Counted from the stretch's first letter, positions 1-9,206 are shown. The stretch: 64,000 bases of DNA from an uncultured Candidatus Saccharibacteria bacterium (GCA_964507625.1 CAZDPR010000001.1:81499-145498); one strand, 5' to 3'. Program-made: numbers and translations. The notes: generated by a model from the sequence alone, not told the origin.

Positions 1-111
1 AGCAGATTCAAAATATTTGTCAAGTGTTTTCCTATATTGTCTAAAATCTCCAACAACGGTGCTCAATTTATTGAGGACTTTCGATAAAAATTAAATATTC
101 ATTTTGTCAAA

Positions 112-154
112 AATAAGTCTATTATGTTTAAAATAATAGACTTATTTATTTTTA
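112..154 (+). terminator. Intrinsic terminator-like hairpin (AATAAGTCTATTAT...ATAATAGACTTATT) followed by a T-run; it ends the transcript coming in from upstream of the window
   Basis: 14-bp inverted repeat followed by TATTTTT, read directly. Confidence 0.4.
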
Positions 155-223
155 AAAAATACTTATAAAATAATCTTATTTTTGTATTTATTCAAAATAC
201 TTGTCAATTTTTGTTGGAAATAC

Positions 224-252
224 TTGACAAATATTTTGAATTATGCTAACCT
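224..252 (+). promoter_or_regulatory. Extended -10 sigma70-like promoter P1: TTGACA (224-229), 17-nt spacer, TGcTAACCT (244-252). An upstream half-repeat AATACTTGTCAA lies at 196-207
   Basis: Motif read directly. Near-identical architecture recurs at 6598-6626 (TTGACA-17-TGaTAACAT). Confidence 0.5.
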
Positions 253-254
253 AT

Positions 255-660
255 GGGTACGAGCATGGGACAGATCATGTTCGGAGATCGCGAGAGAAAA
301 CAAAACTATCTGTCTCATTCAGGTAGTCACAATCTTCAAGTTAAGTTCCCCCGATATCAGCTCAGCGTACTGATATCAGGAATACTTAACTTGAACTCGA
401 TTTTGTTCTTTTGAGAGCCGGTTTATCGTTACGGCATGTAGGGTAAGTGGATCATAAAGGCTCCTCGAGGCCTCCGATCTGCGAATAGCTTGGGAATTAT
501 CACCCCAAGAGTTACAGGGTATGGTTCTGTGCGCACAGGATCATAAAGAACTCTGACCGACCACAACGATGAGGGGGCAAACGAGCTGATTACTCGTCTC
601 GTCTTGGTAACAAGACAAAATTGCTCCAATCGGAGAAGCGCCAATCGCGCGCTTCTCCTT
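255..660 (+). ncRNA. Candidate structured non-coding RNA (family unassigned), ~50% GC against ~33% background. Several nested hairpins, e.g. 343-391 GTTAAGTTCCCCCGATATCAG...CTGATATCAGGAATACTTAAC, 520-532 CTGTGCGCACAG, 601-616 GTCTTGGTAACAAGAC
   Basis: Sharp local GC jump in an AT-rich genome. Sits immediately downstream of promoter P1 and has no credible ORF. Flows directly into the first conserved cassette module. Confidence 0.35.
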
Positions 661-717
661 TCTATCAGGATCTCGAACTCTTTCGAGGTTCTGTAGAAAG
701 GTTGTTCTTTGAAAAAG
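632..717 (+). repeat. Cassette junction module copy 1: GC hairpin GGAGAAGCGCC...GGCGCTTCTCC plus T-run, conserved hairpin ATCTCGAA-CTCT-TTCGAGGT (670-689), CUGUAGAAA, GTTCTTTGAAAAAG (704-717)
   Basis: Recurrent module aligned by eye across 8 copies. Arms of the conserved hairpin show compensatory substitutions and position-conserved U-G wobbles on the + strand. Confidence 0.7.
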
Positions 718-768
718 TTTGGTTTGGTTATTTTAGTTTCTTTATGGAGATTAAAATAACCAAACCAG
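718..768 (+). repeat. Long perfect hairpin (17-bp stem TGGTTTGGTTATTTTAG/TTAAAATAACCAAACCA) directly 3' of GTTCTTTGAAAAAG. Homologous, with covariation, to the hairpin at 5683-5737
   Basis: Perfect inverted repeat. Compensatory changes relative to 5683-5737 (G->A paired with C->T; TTTTAG/TTAAAA -> TTTCAG/TTGAAA). Confidence 0.6.
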
Positions 769-982
769 AGACCTGATTGCTTTTTGCACAGGCCTCTCTC
801 TTCTCTTTTTTCTCATGCGTGCTTGGACAAACCCTAAGACTAGTCGTAGAACCTGAGGTCATATAAAACTTCATGATATCAGTGACTAGTATAGGAAGCC
901 GTAACTAGATTGATAAAATCTAGTGAAAACTAAATATATTTACTTGTTGAGTGAATACATTTAGATGTTTGTCCAAATCTTG

Positions 983-1095
983 CCAAGAATGAATTGTTAG
1001 TGTTTGTTAAACACGTATAATAACAGTTCATTCTTGGAAACAAGATTTTTTTATCAGGGTCTCAAATTTATTTGAGGTTCTGTAGAAAAATTCAT
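983..1095 (+). repeat. Cassette junction module copy 2 (divergent): hairpin CCAAGAATGAA...TTCATTCTTGG plus T-run, then conserved hairpin variant GTCTCAAAT-TTA-TTTGAGGT (1059-1077) and CUGUAGAAAAA
   Basis: The CGAA/TTCG to CAAA/TTTG double substitution preserves pairing, which is strong evidence for selection on RNA structure. Confidence 0.6.
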
Positions 1096-1119
1096 TTTCA
1101 AAAATTAAATAAACATAAA

Positions 1120-1398
1120 ATGAAAAACTTTAAAGGATTAACCGGTAGTGATGCAAAATTAGAGTTTGCATTGTGTGTATTACATGCAATACCTAATCAG
1201 AACACTGAGGAAATTACTCAGTTATGTCAAGAGGCTCGTGAAGCGGAGATTATTCCAGATCTTGATTTGGAAAAATTGAAAGCTGAAGCACTTGAGATTC
1301 TCCCAACTGCACAATTTTTTTACCCTACTGGTAAAGAAGCAGAAATGAGAAGGTTTCAAGATTTCCGAGACCGTATCCTTGCAATGGCAATGGAATAA
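1120..1398 (+). CDS. Hypothetical small cassette protein (93 aa from MKNFKGLTG...). The tracked ORF start at 1072 lies inside the conserved hairpin, so I moved the start to the ATG at 1120
   Basis: ORF track 1072..1398, internal ATG chosen. No recognisable domain. Confidence 0.4.
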   Translation: MKNFKGLTGSDAKLEFALCVLHAIPNQNTEEITQLCQEAREAEIIPDLDLEKLKAEALEILPTAQFFYPTGKEAEMRRFQDFRDRILAMAME

Positions 1399-1429
1399 AG
1401 GGTAGGTGATTCTAAAAAATCTACCCCTC

Positions 1430-1591
1430 ATACTCCGTTACCCCGTAAGGTAACTCCTCGCATTGGTGGCTAACAAAAATGTGGAGTATCTGTGGCACCT
1501 CTGATTACATCAGAAAAGCCACACCTGTCCTGGAATGTACTATTCCAGCTGATGAGTCCAAAAGGACGAAACAGGGTGTTCTTTGAAAAAG
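1430..1591 (+). repeat. Cassette junction module copy 3 (hammerhead variant): conserved stem UACUCC[GUUACC-CCGUAA-GGUAAC]...GGAGUA, hammerhead ribozyme, then GTTCTTTGAAAAAG (1578-1591)
   Basis: Block shared with 5540-5682. Same downstream motif and hairpin as the other modules. Confidence 0.7.
1520..1579 (+). ncRNA. Hammerhead ribozyme, type III topology. Stem III 5' strand CACCUGU, cleavage triplet GUC (1527-1529, predicted cut after 1529), stem I CUGGAAU-GUACU-AUUCCAG, core CUGAUGAG, stem II UCC-AAAA-GGA, then CGAAAC plus stem III 3' strand AGGGUG
   Basis: All invariant hammerhead core nucleotides (CUGAUGA, GAAA, GUC) are present in the correct order, with three helices of proper polarity. 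The second copy at 5610-5669 differs only in the stem I loop. Confidence 0.8.
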
Positions 1592-1593
1592 AG

Positions 1594-1647
1594 ATTGGTT
1601 TGATGAATTCAGTTTTTTCTGAAAATTGAATTCATCAAACCAAACGA
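1594..1647 (+). repeat. Long perfect hairpin (18-bp stem TTGGTTTGATGAATTCAG/TTGAATTCATCAAACCAA) immediately 5' of the next cassette ORF
   Basis: Perfect inverted repeat read directly. Same position as the hairpins at 718 and 5683. Confidence 0.55.
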
Positions 1648-1649
1648 TC

Positions 1650-1907
1650 ATGAAATATTTAATATTTGCAGCCTTGTCAACATTACTGTCTATCGGCGCT
1701 CTGATGACTTTTTCTCAAACAGATGAAAAATTCTCTCTGATATTTGGGGTTATATTTGGCGCAATGTCGATCAGTTGGTTGGTTAACTTTTATTACGACC
1801 GTAAAATAAATCGTCGTAATAAAAAAAGAATTAGCTTTGCTAATTCTTTTTTTATTGTGCTTGTTGCCAAAAATTTTCAAAAATCGTTACAAAAAATTCA
1901 TATATAG
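1650..1907 (+). CDS. Hypothetical small membrane protein (two predicted TM helices). Start moved to the MKYLIF ATG at 1650
   Basis: ORF track 1626..1907, hydrophobic stretches. The 3' end overlaps the convergent TrmB gene. Confidence 0.3.
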   Translation: MKYLIFAALSTLLSIGALMTFSQTDEKFSLIFGVIFGAMSISWLVNFYYDRKINRRNKKRISFANSFFIVLVAKNFQKSLQKIHI

Positions 1908-2628
1908 ATTTATTGGTAATAATAACAGATCTCAAACCTTTATCCCAAATGGTTATAGAAACATGATTTTTCCAAATTGAAATATTGAGGTTCGGGTTAA
2001 ATAGTGACTGGGGTAATGTACGGATCTCGCGTAACTTTGTTTTAGATCTCTTCTTCTCCTCCGCTGCTAATGGAGAATCTGACATAATCATACGAGCAGT
2101 AATATTCTTTTTTCTACGGAGATCGCCATAAGTCTTTAAACGTTCTCGAGCAACCGTAAATGTTTCTGTTGCCCCCGAAAAACGTAACACCTCGCCATAT
2201 TTTTCTTGTTCCAACGATCTAAAAAAAGTTTCTACAAAACCATCTTCACCTTCGAGATGTTCGACGTCAATTTGCTCGGAATTACCTCGTAAAGCAAAAA
2301 AGGCGCGCAGTTCAGGGAGAATGAGGTCAATCTCTAATTTCTTTTTAGTAACCAGGGCTTCCTCGTGTTCTATAAAATTTTTTAATTTTTCTGGCTTTTC
2401 AACATAAACCATTCGACGTTTACCAATAGTAGTTGTTCCCAGAACCCCTCGCTCAACGAGTTGCTCAATAGCAAGATGGATGGTAGACCGGGGAAGACCG
2501 GTTCCTTTTGCAATATCGGCAATATTTGAGAAACCATTTTTAAACAAGTAGAAAATACTTTGTTGTTCAGCAAAGTCAAAACCGATTTCTTTAAGAGAAT
2601 CTTTTAATTTTTTTGGTATTTCAATCAT
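1852..2628 (-). CDS. TrmB-family winged-HTH transcriptional regulator
   Basis: N-terminal HTH (FYLFKNGFSNIADIAKGTGLPRSTIHLAIEQLVERGVL) typical of the TrmB family. It is the only minus-strand gene inside the cassette array. Confidence 0.55.
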   Translation of the reverse strand: MIEIPKKLKDSLKEIGFDFAEQQSIFYLFKNGFSNIADIAKGTGLPRSTIHLAIEQLVERGVLGTTTIGKRRMVYVEKPEKLKNFIEHEEALVTKKKLEIDLILPELRAFFALRGNSEQIDVEHLEGEDGFVETFFRSLEQEKYGEVLRFSGATETFTVARERLKTYGDLRRKKNITARMIMSDSPLAAEEKKRSKTKLREIRTLPQSLFNPNLNISIWKNHVSITIWDKGLRSVIITNKSIYEFFVTIFENFWQQAQ

Positions 2629-2672
2629 GCTGTAAGTATAGCATTTTTATTTTAAAATGACAAATATTTTTG

Positions 2673-2704
2673 ACATTTATTAAAAATACATATAAATATC
2701 AATA
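2673..2704 (+). promoter_or_regulatory. Promoter-like TTGACA-17-TAAATA in the divergent AT-rich intergenic region between the TrmB gene and ORF 2750
   Basis: Motif read directly. Confidence 0.3.
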
Positions 2705-2749
2705 AAATAAATACTTTTTTAAAAAAGTATAACAAAAATCGTTGTTAAA

Positions 2750-2998
2750 ATGCTTGACTTATTAAAACTATTATGCTACAATGTTTTTAAGAAGATGAGG
2801 AATAACTATCCGCGAGATCCTGATTCTGTTGCTCTTTGTGAACTATTCGAAAGGAATATCCCCAGCATCATTTATAAAACGGAGATGGTGTTTGGAATAT
2901 TCCTTTCGAGGAGAAAGATTGGAAAGGCAGGTCCCTCTGCCGGTTCGGGAATTCCATGGACAGTTTTGAGCGTGCCACCGTTCAGACTCTTCGAGTAA
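2750..2998 (+). CDS. Hypothetical protein (82 aa)
   Basis: ORF track only. Confidence 0.25.
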   Translation: MLDLLKLLCYNVFKKMRNNYPRDPDSVALCELFERNIPSIIYKTEMVFGIFLSRRKIGKAGPSAGSGIPWTVLSVPPFRLFE

Positions 2999-3153
2999 TT
3001 ATTTGTTTTTACGAATAAGAACTTGATGTTGGTTTTTCAAACAAAATGGGCGGGTGAAGCAGTTCTGGTGGACGGAATCCTAGTATGGAAATTGGTAAAG
3101 GATTACGGTTAAGAAATCGTTCTCTTTTATTAAAGACCATAGTAAAGCTTCGG

Positions 3154-3244
3154 GAGAAGTGGGTGTTTTTAACAACCACTTCTCCTTTCTATCAGGATCT
3201 TAAATTTGTTTGAGGTTCTGTAGAAATATTTGTTCTTTGAAAAG
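3154..3244 (+). repeat. Cassette junction module copy 4: GGAGAAGTGG...CCACTTCTCC hairpin plus T-run, conserved hairpin ATCTTAAAT-TTG-TTTGAGGT (two U-G wobbles), CUGUAGAAA, GTTCTTTGAAAAG
   Basis: Alignment with the other copies. The arm substitutions here are tolerated only as RNA wobbles, which fixes the functional strand as +. Confidence 0.7.
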
Positions 3245-3317
3245 AGATGAAGTGAATATCTTGGATATTACCTTTTTAAACGTTTGTGTAGTATCCAGTA
3301 TATTCACTTCATCTTTA
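3241..3317 (+). repeat. Long hairpin (AGATGAAGTGAATAT...ATATTCACTTCATCT) 5' of the small ORF at 3330
   Basis: 15-bp perfect stem read directly. Confidence 0.5.
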
Positions 3318-3329
3318 AACCCATAAACT

Positions 3330-3488
3330 ATGTCCCAAAGGGAAGCACTTAAAGTAGCAGATATGTTGTTGGCCAAAAAAGGATTTAATCCTGACGGCAC
3401 CCCAAAAGGTAAGGGGCGGAAAAAGTCTCAGTCGTTCTTCGAAAGGAGGATGATCAAGACTGTCCCTATGGGTGGAAAGGTACGATAA
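3330..3488 (+). CDS. Small basic ORF (52 aa, MSQREALKVADMLLAKKGF...). Not in the ORF track because it is under 60 aa
   Basis: Correct cassette position just after the hairpin. Translated by hand. Confidence 0.2.
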   Translation: MSQREALKVADMLLAKKGFNPDGTPKGKGRKKSQSFFERRMIKTVPMGGKVR

Positions 3489-3695
3489 ACCTTTCCACCT
3501 GCATCCCTTGCAGGTTTTGACAGAGTCAAAGGGAAAATTCTAATCATCAGATCGATGTCGTTGTTGTCTATCCGTTTTACGAAAGTAAATGGTGAGCCAC
3601 AGGGAGCAGAACCTGATGAAATCATAACCAGTACGGTTGTGATCTTTATCCAAATCATGAAGCAGTTCGTGGTTTGGTAGAGAAACAGTCAAAAA

Positions 3696-3747
3696 ATGAG
3701 TTTGGTGAAATGAGGTAATTCTAGAAGCCTCACTTCACCAAACTCAC
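3696..3747 (+). repeat. Long perfect hairpin (ATGAGTTTGGTGAAATGAGG...CCTCACTTCACCAAACTCAC) ending 6 nt before the start codon at 3753
   Basis: 20-bp stem read directly. Confidence 0.5.
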
Positions 3748-3752
3748 TCACT

Positions 3753-4055
3753 ATGACTAATATGTTCGTTTCATTATCAGGATGGCAAACAGGTCGCGAA
3801 ATCGTGGAACACGATGGAAAACTGTATTTTGAGGTGGCAGAACAAGGCCACTGCAGTATCTGTCAGTCGAGGATTGATCACGTACGTGCCGTAGTTGCAC
3901 GCAAGAAATTGCAGGTAACTTATGGTCATTTACTAGATCGATTTCCGCGCGATGCACGCACCCTGTGGGTAGGATTAGAGAAACCGAAGTCAGAGATGAA
4001 TAGCGGGGAGGTGAAAGCCTTTTTCCGCGAAAACTTAGAACTTCCGATACTCTAA
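3753..4055 (+). CDS. Hypothetical cassette protein (100 aa). A C-x2-C motif suggests a possible small zinc-binding fold
   Basis: ORF track. Followed immediately by the conserved 3' element at 4070. Confidence 0.4.
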   Translation: MTNMFVSLSGWQTGREIVEHDGKLYFEVAEQGHCSICQSRIDHVRAVVARKKLQVTYGHLLDRFPRDARTLWVGLEKPKSEMNSGEVKAFFRENLELPIL

Positions 4056-4069
4056 CTTGTCGTATGTCT

Positions 4070-4260
4070 CCGGACCGGTTTCACACTACCCAATAGTACG
4101 GGTAGCCGGTTGGCAACAGAAAGTAAGTAATGCCTGCTGTGAAGCATGTATATACTGAAAAAGTGAAGCGGAGAAGTGAATGCTAAAACATTCACTTCTC
4201 ATTTTTATCAGGATCTCGAACTCATTCGAGGTTCTGTAGAAATATTTGTTCTTTGAAAAG
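4070..4260 (+). repeat. Cassette junction module copy 5, full length: 3' element CCGGACCGG..CTACCC-AATAGTAC-GGGTAG-CCGGTTGGCAACAG, terminator hairpin GAGAAGTGAATGC...TCACTTCTC plus T5, conserved hairpin ATCTCGAA-CTCA-TTCGAGGT, CUGUAGAAA, GTTCTTTGAAAAG
   Basis: Over 90% identical to 4684-4874. The 5' 55 nt also match 5404-5459. Confidence 0.75.
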
Positions 4261-4261
4261 A

Positions 4262-4312
4262 GTTTAATTGGTTACATAAGTTTTTTATGAAGATTTATGT
4301 AACCAATTAAAC
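4262..4312 (+). repeat. Long perfect hairpin (GTTTAATTGGTTACATAA...TTATGTAACCAATTAAAC) ending 10 nt before the ATG at 4323
   Basis: 18-bp stem read directly. Confidence 0.5.
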
Positions 4313-4322
4313 AAATAACACC

Positions 4323-4676
4323 ATGTCAGCTTTAAACATACATACACTGATTATTCTGAGAACACAATTTTCTAACCGATTTGAAGGTCCTAAGCCTGCG
4401 TCCCTTACCTATAGTGCAGTTTATTATGGAAATGATAGGGCATATGTTGAATATTACAATGAGAATCTTGTTGATGAAGTGGCTACACAGTGTGATTTTT
4501 GGGAGTGCGTAAACAGATATTGCGAAGAGTTTTTTATTAATGTTAAGGTTCTGGATGAGGTAGATGAAAAAGAAAAAATTGAAGAACATTTAACAAAATT
4601 AATAACTGACAAGATCGTGAAATTAGCCGGTAGACCACTCGGATCATCATTTCGAAATATTAATAAAGATTCTTAA
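4323..4676 (+). CDS. Hypothetical cassette protein (117 aa)
   Basis: ORF track. Flanked by modules on both sides. Confidence 0.4.
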   Translation: MSALNIHTLIILRTQFSNRFEGPKPASLTYSAVYYGNDRAYVEYYNENLVDEVATQCDFWECVNRYCEEFFINVKVLDEVDEKEKIEEHLTKLITDKIVKLAGRPLGSSFRNINKDS

Positions 4677-4683
4677 TACAATT

Positions 4684-4874
4684 CCGGACCGGTCTCACAC
4701 TACCCAATAGCAAGGGTAGCCGGTTGGCAACAGAAAGTAAGTAATACCTGCTGCGAAGCATGTATATACTGAAAAAGTGAAGCGGAGAAGTGAATGCTAA
4801 AGCACTCACTTCTCATTTTTATCAGGATCTCGAACTCATTCGAGGTTCTGTAGAAAGACTTGTTCCTTAAAAAG
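4684..4874 (+). repeat. Cassette junction module copy 6 (full length, near-identical to copy 5)
   Basis: Direct comparison with 4070-4260. Confidence 0.75.
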
Positions 4875-4963
4875 AGAACGAAAGCAGCTAGCAACTTATT
4901 AGATCCGGTTGATAAAACCCCACGATAAGGCGTGGAAAACTGGCATTCAGCTGGTCCGGAATT

Positions 4964-5395
4964 TTGCTTATGGAGAATATTATTCTTAATAAGACGGAGG
5001 ATTCTTCTTTCATCACTATCTCTAAAGACTTCATACCTCGATTGACTTACTTTGTTGTCAAAACATGGGACAGTTATTGGGGTGGTTATCATGAGGTCGG
5101 AGTGAAAACTCTTACCTTAATGGATAAGGATTGTGGTGTTACTCTAAAAGATCTCAAAAAGGCTATTTCGAGAAGAGGATTAGGTGCAAAGATTGTAAAA
5201 GAAAGTCATTCACATAATGGCGATGAACAATCTTTTTACTGGTCTCTTAAGGAGTGGTTCCCTGTCTATAAGATAGGTAATGAGTATTATGTCTATGCTT
5301 TTGACAAAGCTCAGTTTGGTGGTGTTGGAATTACTTTTCAACATGTAAACCATCGGGTAGCGGAAGAGCTGGATATTTTAGAGCAATTTTACTAG
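4964..5395 (+). CDS. Hypothetical cassette protein (143 aa)
   Basis: ORF track. Confidence 0.4.
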   Translation: MLMENIILNKTEDSSFITISKDFIPRLTYFVVKTWDSYWGGYHEVGVKTLTLMDKDCGVTLKDLKKAISRRGLGAKIVKESHSHNGDEQSFYWSLKEWFPVYKIGNEYYVYAFDKAQFGGVGITFQHVNHRVAEELDILEQFY

Positions 5396-5403
5396 AAGAT
5401 CCT

Positions 5404-5682
5404 CCGGACCGGTTTCACACTACCCAATAGCACGGGTAGCCGGTTGGCAACAGAAAGTACCTTGCTTGCGAGGGAAAAAGTGAAAAGGGAATCAGGTTGT
5501 GCCCTCAATAAGGAAAGACAACCACCATATATTGCTCCGTTACCCCGTAAGGTAACTCCTCGCATTGGTGACTAACAAAAATGTGGAGTAAGCGGACGTT
5601 GAACAACATCCGCACCTGTCCTGGAATGGAGTATTCCAGCTGATGAGTCCAAAAGGACGAAACAGGGTGTTCTTTGAAAAAG
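5404..5682 (+). repeat. Cassette junction module copy 7 (hammerhead variant): 3' element CCGGACCGG...GGCAACAG, then divergent linker, conserved UGCUCC[GUUACC-CCGUAA-GGUAAC]...GGAGUA block, hammerhead, GTTCTTTGAAAAAG (5669-5682)
   Basis: Shares its 5' part with copies 5 and 6 and its 3' part with copy 3. Confidence 0.7.
5610..5669 (+). ncRNA. Hammerhead ribozyme, type III, second copy. GUC at 5618-5620 (predicted cut after 5620), stem I CUGGAAU-GGAGU-AUUCCAG, CUGAUGAG, UCC-AAAA-GGA, CGAAAC-AGGGUG
   Basis: Identical core to 1520-1579. Only the stem I loop (GGAGU versus GUACU) and the distal stem III differ. Confidence 0.8.
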
Positions 5683-5737
5683 TTTGATTTGGTTATTTCA
5701 GTTTCTGTATGGAAATTGAAATAACCAAATCAAATGA
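5683..5737 (+). repeat. Long perfect hairpin (TTTGATTTGGTTATTTCAG...TTGAAATAACCAAATCAAA). A covarying homolog of the 718-768 hairpin
   Basis: 19-bp stem. Paired compensatory substitutions relative to copy 1. Confidence 0.6.
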
Positions 5738-6031
5738 ATATGAGTATTAAGCGCGCACGAGATCGTATTTGCCGAAAGGCATAGAGATTATCAAAAATCA
5801 CCCTTACACTCTTAAGGTTTTGTCATTGACATGAGTATTGGGTTTTGTCCCCATCTTACCTAAAAGATGGAGAGCCATGAAAAAGCAGATTTTCATATGA
5901 GTAAACATATTAAAAAATCCACCAAATTGTTGTGTACAGGCGTTTGGTTGGCAGGAGTTATTTTTTTATTTATTCCACGCGGAGCCAGAGTCTCTGTCGG
6001 GTTTATTTAAAAAAAAAGATGTTCTGTCATT

Positions 6032-6120
6032 GAGAAGTGTTTGCCTGGGTGAACACTTCTCTTTTCTATCAGGATCTCGAACCACTTCGAGGTTCTGCAG
6101 AAATAGTTGTTCTTTAAATC
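6032..6120 (+). repeat. Cassette junction module copy 8: GAGAAGTGTT...AACACTTCTC hairpin plus T-run, conserved hairpin ATCTCGAA-CCAC-TTCGAGGT, CUGCAGAAA, GTTCTTTAAATC
   Basis: Alignment with the other copies. Confidence 0.65.
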
Positions 6121-6597
6121 ACAAAAAACTTTAAAATGGAAACTAAAAAACCAAGGGATAGACTTCGAACTATCTAATGAGTTCTTACGCAGAACTCACC
6201 CTTTTAGTCGCTTATCAGTTCGATATTCCTGAAACGATATATGGAAGTGGCAACATCATGATGCTAGCTTAATTGTTAATTAGGTTAGAAGATTGGTGAG
6301 TTTTCGCCGGTTTAAGTGCCGGGATAGTCCCTCTCACTATAAATGTCTAGATCCGTCAAGGGTTGAGGACATAATGAGAGATGCCAAACTGATAGGGGTT
6401 ACGGAAATTAACCTCGCTCTATAAGTTTCCATGTACTGGGTTGTACAGTAAGCGAAATGAGTAAATTTTCCGTTTTTGTTCACTAAACCTTTTATTTGAT
6501 AGATTGGAAAGTTGTTAACTTTCCAATCATCATAAAAGTTTTATTAAATTCTCTAAAGAAGGCCTAATATAGGTTTTTTATTGTATTTATTTTGTAC

Positions 6598-6626
6598 TTG
6601 ACAAAAAAATTAAAATATGATAACAT
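6598..6626 (+). promoter_or_regulatory. Extended -10 promoter P2: TTGACA (6598-6603), 17-nt spacer, TGaTAACAT (6618-6626). A paralog of P1, including the shared TACTTGACAAA context
   Basis: Direct motif comparison with 221-252. Confidence 0.5.
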
Positions 6627-6633
6627 GTATTTA

Positions 6634-6755
6634 AGTCAGTGGTGGAATTTGTTATCAAAATGACAAACTATTCCTGTTAGGAGAAAAGTCCACACAAATC
6701 TCCCTGTTAGGGGGTAAAAACAAAATCTAAAACCACCCTTCCGGGTGGTTTTTTA
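6634..6755 (+). promoter_or_regulatory. ~120-nt leader transcript from P2 ending in an intrinsic terminator (ACCACCC-UUCC-GGGUGGU plus U6 at 6732-6755), 50 nt upstream of the 799-aa gene. Candidate attenuator, riboswitch-like leader or small RNA. Contains the repeated CCUGUUAGG(A/G)G motifs
   Basis: Promoter, leader, terminator and gene in sequence. Upstream GUGGUGG (6642-6648) could alternatively pair with the terminator 5' arm. Confidence 0.4.
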
Positions 6756-6806
6756 CTGATATTATTTTTTATAGGAATCCGTTTCTTATGATATAATAAA
6801 GTTATT

Positions 6807-9206
6807 ATGAAAGAATCGTTTCTACCTGCAAAAAAAACAAATAATAATGAAATATTAATTACTCTAGAATATATTCCTGGAATGCAACCACAAGAAATAA
6901 TATTGGAAAAGTTTACCCCTGAGGAGCAAAAGGTAATAGAAGATCGCAAGGAAATATTAAAAACAATCGTAGGGGCTGTTTCAGGTAATTACTCTATTCC
7001 CGTTGTATTAGGGTTGCCTGAAAGGGTGGGAGATTCAGGTTGGCGTCATGTAAAGTTAAAAGATGGACGTGAATTCATACAACTGAATGCTCATGATATT
7101 TTAACCAAAGAAATGGATTTTTTACGGTTTGTAACAGCTCATGAGGCTGGACATCAAGCAATCACTAAATGGGATTTTATCTTTGACGATCCGGAACTTA
7201 CAGAACTATATACAAATACAACAGGATTTGCATATTTATTAAATTGCACAGAAGATCCTCGGGATAATAATTATGTTGCAGAAGTTTATGAGCCGTTTAC
7301 AGAAGTAATGAAATTAGCATATCGTTTACAAGAAGAATACACAGAAGATATGTTAATTGAAATAAAAAAGAAAATGGGGTTTATTCCAAGACATATATTA
7401 GCAGGTATGGAATATATTCAGCAATGGTACCGTGAATCTCAAACATTACCTTTTGCGATTAATTCTGATTTACCAGGTGATGTGTATGAAGTAGTTCAAA
7501 AAACATTACCATACGCAAAAGATTCATGGTGGAGATTTCCATCCAAAGAAGAGGTTGTTCGTAATCCAGACATTATTCATAAATATGCTCGCATATATTT
7601 TGATATTAATTTAAAAAAAATTTGGCCAGAATTTGCAAAATTAGTAGAAAAAGATAAAAAAGATCAACAGGTACAACAAATGTTGAAAAAGATGAGTCGC
7701 GAACAAAAAGATCAAGAAATTGAGTTGCCTCCTTGGCTTCAAGAGATTTTAAACGAAGAGGATCAAGAGTTTTTAAAAAAAATTTTGCGTGAATATTTGA
7801 AAATGCTCAAAAAGGCAGAACAGGCAGATAAAGAAGAATTGTTGAGTGATCCTGAAAAAAAACAAGAAGATTCAGATTCAGATTTAGAAGAAGGAGAAGA
7901 GGGGGTGGAGACAGGCCCAAACAACAACCCTTCTCCAGAAGAGTCTGATACAGAGAATACAGAGAATACAGGGAATACAGAGAATACAGAGAATACAGAG
8001 AATACAGAGAATACAGAGAATACAGAGAATACAGAGAATACAAAGAATACAGAGAATACAGAGAATACAGATTTACAGAAGAAAGATATTCCGTTTGATT
8101 TAGATCAATTGCCAGATGATTTAAAAGATAAATTAAGTGAAGGTATAGATAAGAATATGGACCCAGGAGAACGTGAAGAGTTAGAAAAAGAGTCAGAAAA
8201 AGCAATAAAAGAGTTAGACGAAGAGATTATTAAAAAAATACAAGACCAAACGAAAAACGATACAAAGAATTATAATGAATCAAAAAAAAGTAATAATGAA
8301 GAGGTTAAAAAAGAAGTTGAACTAAAAGATAAAAGAAAAGAAATTGAAAAAAAACTAAAAACATTTGAAGAAGGACTTGATGAATTGTTCAAATTGAAAG
8401 AAGATTTCAAAAAACAAACTGAAGTGGTTCCTGATAATAAATACCAAAAAGCGCGTCAAGAAAACTTTGAAATAATAAAAAAACTAGAAAATGATTTACG
8501 TATGATTTTTAAGAGTAGACGAGAAGGGTTGACTCAAAAAAATCTTCCCTCTGGTTCACGTATTAACATGTTTAAAAGAATTCAAGAAAAAGCACGTGGG
8601 ATTAGTGTAGTGGAATCACGAGCGTATGAACGAAAAATTTTACCTCAAGAAAAAGATTATGCAATTACGTTATTAGTAGATCTTTCCGGTTCAATGAGCG
8701 ATAAAATAGAAGAAACATTTGCCGGAGTTGTTGCAGTTACTGAATCATTGCATCGACTAGGAATCAAAACAGAAATTTTAGGGTTTAACCATCTCATGTT
8801 TGAATTTAAGAAATTTAATGAAAAAATGACAAGTAAAATACAAGATAAGATGGGTGAAATGATTAATGCAGTAAGTCAACCGGGTGCAAATGGTAATAAT
8901 GATGGTTATGCAGTACTAATTGCATCAGAAAGATTAAAAAAGACTAATGAAAAAGAAAAGATTTTAATTGCTTTTTCAGATGGTCAACCCAATCCTTCTG
9001 GTGAGTATAGTGGTGATAAATATGAGCTAACTAATGTGATTAGAAAAACTAAAGCAGATAACACTATAAAATTAGTAGGAGTTGGTTTAGGAGAAGGAAC
9101 TGATCATGTGTCGCATTATTATCCAAAAAGTGCTGCAAATATTCCCATAAATGATTTATCGAAACAATTAGCAAGAGTGATACGTGAAGCAATTGAAGAA
9201 AATTAA
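6807..9206 (+). CDS. Three-part protein: N-terminal HExxH zinc metallopeptidase-like domain (HEAGH at 7140-7154), central acidic coiled-coil linker with an (ENT)n repeat, and C-terminal von Willebrand factor A domain with the MIDAS motif DLSGS (8679-8693) and the AFSDGQP motif
   Basis: Motifs read from the translation. This architecture (putative metallopeptidase plus vWA, as in DUF2201-type proteins) is the usual partner of MoxR AAA+ ATPases. Confidence 0.7.
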   Translation: MKESFLPAKKTNNNEILITLEYIPGMQPQEIILEKFTPEEQKVIEDRKEILKTIVGAVSGNYSIPVVLGLPERVGDSGWRHVKLKDGREFIQLNAHDILTKEMDFLRFVTAHEAGHQAITKWDFIFDDPELTELYTNTTGFAYLLNCTEDPRDNNYVAEVYEPFTEVMKLAYRLQEEYTEDMLIEIKKKMGFIPRHILAGMEYIQQWYRESQTLPFAINSDLPGDVYEVVQKTLPYAKDSWWRFPSKEEVVRNPDIIHKYARIYFDINLKKIWPEFAKLVEKDKKDQQVQQMLKKMSREQKDQEIELPPWLQEILNEEDQEFLKKILREYLKMLKKAEQADKEELLSDPEKKQEDSDSDLEEGEEGVETGPNNNPSPEESDTENTENTGNTENTENTENTENTENTENTENTKNTENTENTDLQKKDIPFDLDQLPDDLKDKLSEGIDKNMDPGEREELEKESEKAIKELDEEIIKKIQDQTKNDTKNYNESKKSNNEEVKKEVELKDKRKEIEKKLKTFEEGLDELFKLKEDFKKQTEVVPDNKYQKARQENFEIIKKLENDLRMIFKSRREGLTQKNLPSGSRINMFKRIQEKARGISVVESRAYERKILPQEKDYAITLLVDLSGSMSDKIEETFAGVVAVTESLHRLGIKTEILGFNHLMFEFKKFNEKMTSKIQDKMGEMINAVSQPGANGNNDGYAVLIASERLKKTNEKEKILIAFSDGQPNPSGEYSGDKYELTNVIRKTKADNTIKLVGVGLGEGTDHVSHYYPKSAANIPINDLSKQLARVIREAIEEN
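7950..8071 (+). repeat. In-frame 9-bp tandem repeat (GAGAATACA) of about 13.5 units encoding (E-N-T)n. One unit is GGGAATACA and one is AAGAATACA
   Basis: Read directly. The minus-strand ORF 7807..8205 is an artefact of this repeat. Confidence 0.85.

Follow-up and report, generated by a model that had tools for sequence, protein, structure and literature searches.

Arrangement of the arrays and their junctions

The window, a 64,000-nucleotide stretch of DNA from an uncultured Candidatus Saccharibacteria bacterium, contains arrays of small genes separated by structured junctions. Array 1 starts with a sigma-70-type promoter (224-250, + strand; TTGACA-N17-TATGCT) that aligns to its counterparts at related loci and is followed by an untranslated leader of ~380 nt (251-631, + strand). 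A TrmB-like wHTH regulator gene (1852-2628, - strand), the conserved anchor of the locus, is divergent from the sigma-70-type promoter of array 2 (2754-2782, + strand; TTGACT-N17-TACAAT with TG), which is followed by a leader of ~360 nt (2790-3151, + strand). Every array consists of a promoter, a leader, and repeated units, each comprising P1-P2 or P1-hammerhead, a box, an optional P3, and an ORF. The arrays, including a single-gene array, end at plain strong terminators that lack the module, and no consistent promoter-like site was found inside the junctions. The genes within the arrays are mutually unrelated, and their content is almost wholly replaced between genomes while the junctions persist; the only constant neighbor across loci is the TrmB-type DNA-binding regulator. 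The window also holds an RNase Y gene and, by regex scan only, an ORF with the RNase J-like metallo-beta-lactamase motif HxHxDH. No RNase III signature is present within the 64-kb window, a result that concerns the window only and says nothing about the whole genome.

Seven copies of the hairpin lie in the window, six near-identical and one diverged, all on the + strand within 653-6125; with two hammerheads they make up the junctions of the arrays. The initial annotation counted eight copies, a figure that roughly equals the number of junctions but overlooks the diverged copy. The recurrence it described on the + strand is borne out by the pattern ATCAGGRTCTYRAA-N3-5-TYRAGGTTCTG, which matches six times (664, 1053, 3191, 4207, 4821, and 6068) against a shuffle expectation of 0. 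A covariance model locates the diverged seventh copy at 3637-3702; with filters off, every other site in the 64 kb falls short by more than 38 bits. Eight related genomes of Patescibacteria yielded approximately 19 further copies, each time in a small-ORF array between the TrmB-like regulator gene and rny, and none was found outside the arrays in the 64-kb window (filters off) or in ~150 kb of related loci. Sense copies score 55-80 bits, except for three diverged subtype-C copies (32-39 bits), and antisense scores are 17-27 bits. Among the families of Rfam 15, including the ribozyme classes and the RAGATH and Drum motifs, none reaches its gathering threshold on the hairpin module, in agreement with the initial annotation, which could match it to no named ribozyme or RNA family. 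The two-hairpin RNA element is previously uncatalogued, a new RNA motif whose general kind is already known.

Copy 1 comprises a GC-rich P1 hairpin (632-658, + strand; GGAGAAGCG..CGCUUCUCC) that adjoins the next helix without a spacer and a core (659-699, + strand) composed of UUUCUA / bulged U665 / CAGGAUCUCGAA-CUCU-UUCGAGGUUCUG / UAGAAA, which forms an 18-bp helix. The remaining copies, likewise on the + strand, each precede an ORF: copy 2 (1032-1088; P1 1032-1045, core 1048-1088) lies upstream of ORF 1120-1398, copy 3 (3152-3226; P1 3152-3185, core 3186-3226) upstream of ORF 3330-3488, copy 4 (4171-4242; P1 4171-4200, core 4202-4242) upstream of ORF 4323-4676, copy 5 (4785-4856; P1 4785-4814, core 4816-4856) upstream of ORF 4970-5395, and copy 6 (6032-6103; P1 6032-6061, core 6063-6103) upstream of a conserved 13-codon micro-ORF (6136-6177). 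Copies 4 and 5 share 94% identity across 194 nt. The diverged copy 7 (3622-3683; P1 3622-3642, core 3643-3683), upstream of ORF 3753-4055, has the core UCUUUA U CCAAAUCAUGAA GCAG UUCGUGGUUUGG UAGAGA and retains 18/18 pairs, several by two-sided changes.

Downstream of the core lies the box GTTCTTTGAAAAAG (704-717 at copy 1, + strand), which is common to hairpin and hammerhead junctions, with further + strand copies at 1578-1591, 3232-3245, 4248-4261, and 5669-5682 and degenerate ones at 4862-4875 and 6109-6120. The box had been described as near-invariant. It is exact at both hammerhead junctions and at one hairpin junction, but carries 2 mismatches at two hairpin junctions (3232 and 4248) and is degenerate at four (1053, 3637, 4821, and 6068). 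P3, where present, is a long near-perfect hairpin directly 5′ of the start codon (718-769, + strand); others occur on the same strand at 1595-1643, ~3243-3316, 3697-3746, 4262-4312, and 5683-5734.

Fold, covariation, and strand of the element

Twelve base pairs of the 18-bp helix belong to P2 and six to a basal extension, with an invariant bulged U between them. The initial annotation correctly paired the hairpin arms but drew the helix too short: the UUUCUA it had assigned to a terminator U-run pairs with UAGAAA to add 6 bp below the bulged U. Across 24 sense copies from 9 genomes, 95.8% of the cells are paired, 10 of the 18 pairs show two-sided changes (57 cells), and 0/500 shuffle controls equal this result; slid controls reach 38-55% pairing. 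RNAalifold and, separately, a MAFFT-only alignment recover the identical helix. The proposed + strand structure with covarying arms is thereby confirmed, as are the individual changes cited for it, a compensatory CGAA/UUCG to CAAA/UUUG exchange (G-C to A-U) in the copy at 1053 and, in the copy at 3191, a C-to-U substitution that creates a U.G pair. The six exact-pattern copies share two constant wobble pairs, where one had been noted, and have variable loops. The basal extension covaries as well, with U-A in 11 copies, C-G in 12, and A-U also seen; RNA read through P1 therefore appears to be under selection.

Loops vary in sequence and in length (3-12 nt), and the sole invariant unpaired base is the bulged U; the invariant positions are this U, A24-U42, A54, and A58. 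No conserved unpaired core, junction, internal loop, or pseudoknot partner is present among the 24 copies. Distinct subtypes are each kept across genomes, and diverged copies within one genome have most stem bases altered with pairing retained. Between the window and a related locus (L135), the 37 stem positions are 100% identical, whereas the adjacent trmB genes share only 62% DNA identity. This stem identity, together with the conserved subtypes, suggests a sequence-specific partner or horizontal movement of junctions.

The sense strand is fixed by the excess of G.U over A.C cells (68 vs 8) and by folding energies of -16 to -20 kcal/mol for sense compared with -4 to -13 kcal/mol for antisense. 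The wobbles had also been taken to prove RNA. Folded single-stranded DNA tolerates G.T wobbles too, so the wobbles alone are no proof of RNA. The evidence supports a selected single-stranded structure formed by the sense strand. Its reading as RNA rests on three points: it is oriented like the genes, internal promoters are absent, and it exchanges with a ribozyme.

P1, an 8-13-bp GC hairpin of unconstrained sequence, adjoins and stacks on the 18-bp bulged helix in 25/26 copies, with sequences that are unrelated to one another. As initially reported, a GC-rich hairpin and a U-rich run lie upstream in every window copy, and several P1 hairpins followed by UUUUU resemble efficient terminators. 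A consensus scan assigns a terminator-like score to P1 and its U-run in 3/7 window copies. Diverged copies have only 3-4 U in the 8 nt after P1, and at subtype C junctions the U-run 3′ of P1 is poor or missing. Hammerhead junctions have the same adjoining hairpin without a U-run; P1 is therefore probably not primarily a terminator.

Hammerheads in the same slot

Two junctions carry type III hammerheads on the + strand. The first (1522-1577) has an intact CUGAUGA..GAAA core, with a hairpin (1509-1524) adjoining stem III and the box directly 3′; at the second (5613-5668) the upstream hairpin and box are arranged in the same way. Both show the features that define the type III class, namely an intact core, closed stems I and II, an open stem III, and a GUC cleavage triplet, and are predicted to be catalytic. 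Full-length alignment to RF00008 places every core base (E = 1.7e-6, 41.2 bits; gathering score 48.5), and the homologous hammerhead at related locus L132 scores 49.5 bits. The hairpin module itself is not a hammerhead, a fold of three helices around a CUGAUGA / GAAA core with a cleavage-site H17: these core strands occur in 0/24 copies, and Rfam Hammerhead gives no match at E up to 10.

The same box follows 4/5 hammerhead junctions. The initial annotation placed module and hammerhead in one slot, and this arrangement recurs in four genomes. At one orthologous junction P1 is followed by P2 in the window (copy 6) and by a hammerhead in L132, a close relative, with homology beginning again at the box; the two loci are also chimeric with respect to each other in their junction parts. 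Clustered hammerheads flank single genes in bacterial and prophage arrays (Perreault et al. 2011, PMC3088659). The loci described here resemble those arrays in having genuine type III hammerheads among the junctions and co-oriented small genes of unrelated function, each after a compact structured RNA domain. They differ in that most window junctions have a plain module of two hairpins where a ribozyme would be and in occupying a fixed chromosomal site, trmB to rny, in Patescibacteria, with no recognizable prophage.

Possible roles of the element

With the structure, strand, and anatomy of the element, its restriction to the array, and its slot exchange with the hammerhead established here, we infer read-through, cleavage, and the identity of the enzyme. 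In our preferred reading, to which we give roughly an even chance, the element is a cis-acting RNA “punctuation mark” in long transcripts, an intercistronic processing or insulation hairpin cut by an RNase III-like protein RNase. Transcription would start from one strong sigma-70-type promoter, divergent from the TrmB-like gene, and pass through a ~400-nt leader. Ahead of every ORF, P1 would stack directly on the 18-bp bulged helix. Because the U-rich run after P1 is the 5′ strand of this helix, the helix would form solely on read-through RNA, and P1 would be a leaky terminator at most. A protein endoribonuclease, most simply a double-strand enzyme of the RNase III type, would then cut in or beside the helix and separate the cistrons, leaving P1 as a 3′ protective hairpin on the upstream RNA and a structured 5′ end (helix remainder, box, and P3) on the downstream mRNA. 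Hairpins at the 5′ end stabilize mRNAs in bacteria relying on RNase J and RNase Y. A type III hammerhead in the same slot would make the same cut without protein, and processing of long transcripts is the role suggested for clustered hammerheads on either side of single genes in bacteria (PMC3088659, PMC6765202).

The window hairpins resemble the RNase III hairpins of phages T7 and SP82 in being repeated, sequence-related, irregular, and intercistronic on a long transcript and, as predicted here, in leaving a hairpin that protects the upstream 3′ end. They differ in having a shorter helix (18 bp plus bulge), in being always stacked on a second hairpin, and in residing on a cellular chromosome. 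RNase III cleaves the conserved intercistronic hairpins of T7 and SP82 early mRNAs. The intercistronic position and lack of internal promoters are as at such sites, and the helix, set against the approximately two helical turns of an RNase III site, is borderline at the short end. Several observations count against processing by this enzyme. RNase III would be expected to prefer the long perfect P3 hairpins to the helix, and efficient termination at P1 would leave little read-through RNA. RNase III requires no particular sequence, so the complete stem identity between the window and L135 also weakens this assignment.

An unlikely though still substantial alternative is that nothing is cut: P1 and its U-run would act as a leaky intrinsic terminator that attenuates gene by gene, and P2 would merely fold read-through RNA into an inert form, sparing neighboring UTRs from misfolding. 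The terminator-like copies noted above are consistent with this, as is the self-contained helix, which brings both ends together as in the hammerhead domain, and mutually unrelated genes could make a context-independent insulator useful. P1 shares with Rho-independent terminators the layout of a GC-rich hairpin and, after it, a U-rich run. The differences are that this run is also the 5′ strand, under selection, of the helix that follows, that P2 lacks a U-run, and that no proper U-tract occurs at subtype C and hammerhead junctions. Passive folding would also require neither the near-perfect conservation of the stem nor an invariant bulged U, and the element’s exchange partner is a self-cleaving RNA.

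Somewhat less probable still is a site for a dedicated sequence-specific RNA-binding protein encoded elsewhere, such as a Cas6/Csy4-like hairpin endonuclease, an antiterminator, or a translational regulator. Stem identity far above that of the flanking genes, the invariant bulged U, A24-U42, A54, and A58, and the maintenance of subtypes across genomes all argue for such a partner. The locus offers no linked candidate protein, however, its only constant neighbor being a DNA-binding regulator, and the retention of pairing in diverged same-genome copies fits recognition of shape rather than of bases.

A DNA-level role, as a recombination site or cassette boundary of attC or REP type or as the operator palindrome of the TrmB-like regulator, is improbable. 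Near-complete replacement of genes between persisting junctions, the chimeric junction parts, and the near-identity of copies 4 and 5 would suit it, although such repeats promote homologous recombination in any case. Against it stand the strand-specific sense pairing, arms that covary to unrelated sequences within one genome, unlike an operator, the confinement of copies to one locus across the 64 kb and ~150 kb of related loci, and an RNA enzyme as the other occupant of the slot. Integron attC sites have intI/attI next to them, carry the cores R″ RYYYAAC and R′ GTTRRRY, and fold from the bottom strand. Like attC and Vibrio VCR arrays, the present loci are series of small, mostly unknown ORFs in one orientation, whose content turns over rapidly and between which lie imperfect dyad repeats conserved in structure rather than in sequence; unlike them, no integrase adjoins the array in the window or the 8 related loci, attI and the R′/R″ cores are missing, the sense strand folds, and a ribozyme can replace the element. 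REP/BIME sequences occur as many genome-dispersed copies with GTAG 5′ of the palindrome. Here all copies lie in one array, and on the folding strand GTAG comes after the hairpin, on its 3′ side.

The initial suggestion of an undescribed self-cleaving motif fares worst and is very improbable: despite the slot shared with the hammerhead, and although searches of ribozyme-rich neighborhoods yielded pistol, hatchet, and twister-sister (PMC10085705), the module is two regular hairpins with free loops and lacks the conserved unpaired core expected of a new class. Twister, twister-sister, pistol, hatchet, hairpin, HDV-like, and glmS give no match to P2 at E up to 10, and the only ribozyme line, Hairpin ribozyme on P1 (14 bits vs 65), is noise. 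The module resembles the RAGATH motifs as a conserved structured RNA from a ribozyme-rich neighborhood and differs from them in matching no Rfam RAGATH family (best RAGATH-14, 18 bits vs a gathering score of 149). RAGATH members are themselves heterogeneous, RAGATH-18, for example, being the source of a TnpB guide RNA.

A hairpin module in regulator-linked small-gene arrays

The large ORFs of the window encode RNase Y, trigger factor, NusA, and RecJ, identifying it as low-GC bacterial chromosome, and its proteins have their nearest relatives in assemblies of Patescibacteria, Paceibacterota, and Minisyncoccia. Small + strand ORFs to which no family could be assigned occupy positions 1-6200, arranged around a minus-strand gene (1852-2628) for a TrmB-like wHTH regulator; nothing usable on what the array proteins do comes from Pfam, PHROGs, PADLOC, or NCBIfam. 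We fetched contigs around eleven of the 64 homologues of the TrmB-like protein, module homologues being reached only via this neighbouring protein. Nine of the eleven loci share an order of trmB, a divergent sigma-70-type promoter, an untranslated leader, and an array of co-oriented small ORFs, with rny convergent at the far end in six of the nine. VWA/AAA genes lie between array and rny in the window and in the related locus L132, and unrelated genes and tRNAs in L134 and L138. The leader spans ~400 nt in most loci and is short in L147, which has no module. L140, containing a distant TrmB homologue (48% identity), has other neighbours and likewise no module.

The initial annotation described a hairpin pattern recurring in eight copies on the + strand. 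Its recurrence is borne out by six exact matches in the window against zero expected, and the compensatory and wobble changes it named are present. The number of copies is seven: a covariance model built from the window copies and homologues recovers one further, diverged copy at 3637-3702 and, with filters off, no other match in the rest of the 64 kb within 38 bits of the module copies. With model searches included, the count is 26 copies across 9 genomes, with matches confined to these arrays and to the gene-sense strand. Exact-pattern scans of viral_contigs and metagenome_contigs yield nine matches, all due to chance in coding sequence, and one chance match in a high-GC gene, respectively; a loose-pattern scan of genome_contigs gives at least 119 chance matches, with the tail and flanks in none among the matches listed. 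A search of phage DNA gives no match, and a search of the window for a trans antisense partner returns only the copies themselves. No family in Rfam 15 matches the module, including the RAGATH motifs, which came from the same type of neighbourhood reasoning (PMC11061315). The module is a new RNA family and a variant of the known “ribozyme-punctuated gene array”.

Structure, covariation, and strand of the module

Folding of each junction produces three successive hairpins: a GC-rich P1, an 18-bp helix that directly abuts it, and usually P3. The U-run that gives P1 the appearance of a terminator, UUUCUA, pairs with UAGAAA beneath a bulged U and the 12-bp P2. A short spacer then leads to the box GUUCUUUGAAAAAG, usually followed by P3, a long near-perfect hairpin just before the ATG.

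We measured covariation on 24 sense copies. Standard pairs occupy 95.8% of cells, and 10 of the 18 pairs are changed on both sides (57 cells). None of 500 shuffles attains the observed pairing or covariation score, and sliding the partner by 1-3 columns leaves pairing at 38-55%. RNAalifold, run on its own, predicts the same helix, and a MAFFT alignment built without fitting to the model points in the same direction. Diverged copies retain the stem: the arms of window copy 7 (CCAAAUCAUGAA/UUCGUGGUUUGG) still pair, one L137 copy has arms AAGGGUUUCGAU/AUCGGAAUCCUU, and the L134 copies have a distinct 13-bp upper stem with a 12-nt loop. The basal extension beneath the bulge also covaries (U-A in 11 copies versus C-G in 12), so selection acts on RNA extending past P1. 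All 24 copies keep the bulged U, and loops are free in sequence and length. Members of the diverged subtype C carry a constant 1x1 mismatch, and the subtypes are each kept across genomes. Over 37 stem positions, identity reaches 100% between genomes with 62% identity in trmB DNA.

The 24 copies contain 68 G.U cells versus 8 A.C cells, pairing on the antisense strand reaches only 81.9%, and fold energies are -16 to -20 kcal/mol for sense and -4 to -13 kcal/mol for antisense. The wobble counts and fold energies fix the strand, upholding the + strand assignment of the initial annotation. Its use of the wobbles as proof of RNA does not hold, since folded single-stranded DNA is compatible with them; we favour RNA because of gene co-orientation, the lack of internal promoters, and exchange with a ribozyme. 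Two other readings of the module sequence were rejected: a frame, SPFYQDLEL.RGSVE, is open through copies 1, 4, and 5, stopped in 2 and 3, and lacks a start codon, and no -35/-10 match to an internal promoter occurs, the real promoters of this genome being near consensus.

Exchange of the module with hammerhead ribozymes

Hammerhead and hairpin module occupy the same slot, as the initial annotation noted. Hammerheads of type III, their cores intact, lie at two junctions of the window, and type III hammerheads are also present in three related arrays. In 25 of 26 module copies, 0-2 nt separate P1 from the helix, and P1 sequences are unrelated to one another. All five hammerheads have an abutting upstream hairpin, here without a U-run, and in four the same box follows. 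L132 (TrmB 83% identical) has a stretch orthologous to the 13-codon micro-ORF, with its flanks, that lies downstream of window copy 6 (6032-6103). In this orthologous slot L132 carries P1-hammerhead and the window P1-P2, and homology starts again exactly at the box. Array ends, and likewise a single-gene array, have ordinary strong terminators and no module, which places the module at internal junctions. Within the library searched, no paper links hammerheads with CPR/Patescibacteria. What is new here is that a hairpin module can stand in for a hammerhead and vice versa, at a chromosomal site in Patescibacteria that is fixed and linked to a regulator.

Self-cleavage is the sole known activity of the hammerhead, whose biological role in bacteria is not yet settled. 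Where they are clustered, bacterial hammerheads are believed to divide long transcripts into gene-length mRNAs (PMC3088659, PMC6765202). On the simplest account, the plain helix would mark the same cut, made by a protein endoribonuclease, most naturally one of the RNase III type; P1 would stay on the upstream RNA as a 3′ protective hairpin, and the downstream mRNA would keep a structured 5′ end. The early mRNAs of phages T7 and SP82 are the classical analogues of such processing. Cleavage, read-through, and the enzyme are all inferred here. The stem is conserved far beyond the needs of RNase III; this excess, with the conserved subtypes, points to a partner that reads sequence, to junctions moving between genomes, or to both. 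Array ORFs are almost wholly unrelated from genome to genome and, between the window and L132, parts of the junctions are chimeric; it is therefore very probable that the repeats also mediate the shuffling of cassettes through homologous recombination. A broader reading, tentative and rather unlikely, casts the locus as a cassette array of Patescibacteria, integron-like though lacking an integrase, that would place foreign small genes behind one regulated promoter. A hammerhead or P1-P2 would make each gene expressible, a dedicated sequence-specific endoribonuclease would read the hairpin, and the modules would double as recombination handles within and between genomes.

The shared slot had also suggested that the module might itself be an undescribed self-cleaving motif, and neighbourhood reasoning is a legitimate route to ribozyme discovery (PMC10085705). 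The module, however, has neither conserved junction or loop nucleotides nor tertiary partners, and the Rfam search proposed alongside this idea gives no match to the ribozyme models even at E up to 10. To our knowledge, such nucleotides and partners are present in every known self-cleaving class, and we consider a ribozyme very improbable. Reading P1-P2 as a degenerate hammerhead (CUAUCAGG versus CUGAUGAG, with UAGAAA as GAAA) fails at stem III pairing in all copies.

We know of no earlier link between the proposal that hammerheads process polycistronic RNA and a non-ribozyme counterpart. Here ribozyme and plain hairpin share a slot, in one case orthologous between two genomes; should a protein RNase cut the hairpin, this would be direct comparative evidence that the job of the hammerhead in such arrays is cistron separation. 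The two would form an experimentally simple pair that can be swapped in a reporter operon, and the modules could offer natural insulator parts for synthetic operons. The poorly studied Patescibacteria also gain a well-supported new RNA family and, at a fixed place on the chromosome, a hypervariable small-gene array linked to a regulator.

Other conserved elements of the arrays

The window leader at 251-631 (conserved at ~560-625) and those of L146, L134, and L137 share an invariant CUGACCGAACAAAAYGG, followed by two hairpins that covary between genomes (e.g., CGCG..CGCG, CGAG..CUCG, UGCA..UGCA). This ~400-nt leader has no Rfam match and could be a regulatory or antitermination RNA governing read-through into the array. 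In a second leader type (window 2790-3151, hairpin ~2838-2925; L132, L135, L137, and L142), the promoter divergent from trmB is immediately followed by a long conserved hairpin, UUCGAAAGGAAUAUCCCC...GGAAUAUUCCUUUCGAGG, with CUCGAA/UUCGAGG at its base as at the top of P2. Direct repeats ATGACAAAT-N-TGACA adjoin promoters at window 2655-2680, 190-240, and 1-30 and are kept upstream of trmB in five genomes (alignment columns 25-48), making them a candidate operator of the TrmB-like regulator.

P3 hairpins (718-769, 1595-1643, 3697-3746, 4262-4312, and 5683-5734) are near-perfect, span 18-24 bp, and lie just upstream of start codons. TTGGTT/AACCAA is common among them, and the 3′ arm sets AACCAAA 7-20 nt ahead of the ATG. 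One and the same P3 sequence stands before different ORFs in the window and in L132, and the L146 array has no P3 hairpins. A 56-nt repeat, CUCCGUUACCCCGUAAGGUAACUCCUCGCAUUGGUGRCUAACAAAAAUGUGGAG, precedes both window hammerhead junctions (1433-1488 and 5535-5590) and the L132 hammerhead; hammerhead junctions therefore have a conserved upstream element of their own. A 58-nt repeat, CCGGACCGGUUUCACACUACCCAAUAG.ACGGGUAGCCGGUUGG, directly follows the stop codons of three unrelated ORFs (4068-4125, 4682-4739, and 5402-5459) as a conserved 3′UTR hairpin with an asymmetric internal loop. The conserved 5′UTR element CCCACGAYAAGGCGUGGAAAACUGGCA...GCUGGUCCGRA, before a 141-aa ORF in the window (~4895-4965) and a 102-aa gene at an L146 junction, may be a gene-specific regulatory RNA. 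The 13-codon micro-ORF METKKPRDRLRTI (MQTKKPRDRIRTI in L132) and the ~100 nt of conserved non-coding sequence after it, together at window 6136-6290 and L132 ~8760-8940 (minus strand), are common to both genomes.

Beyond the window array, 6598-6760 combines a near-consensus promoter with a strong terminator (AAAACCACCC..GGGUGGUUUUUU) ~130 nt on and no ORF between, and by this arrangement looks like a small RNA gene. A 9-nt tandem repeat at 7948-7998 encodes a run of TEN repeats in a 799-aa VWA/CobT-like ORF. LOOT RNA (RF03000, 81-83 bits) occurs in L135 (16835-16957) and L138 (13516-13641), on the minus strand in both, adjoining large serine recombinase genes.
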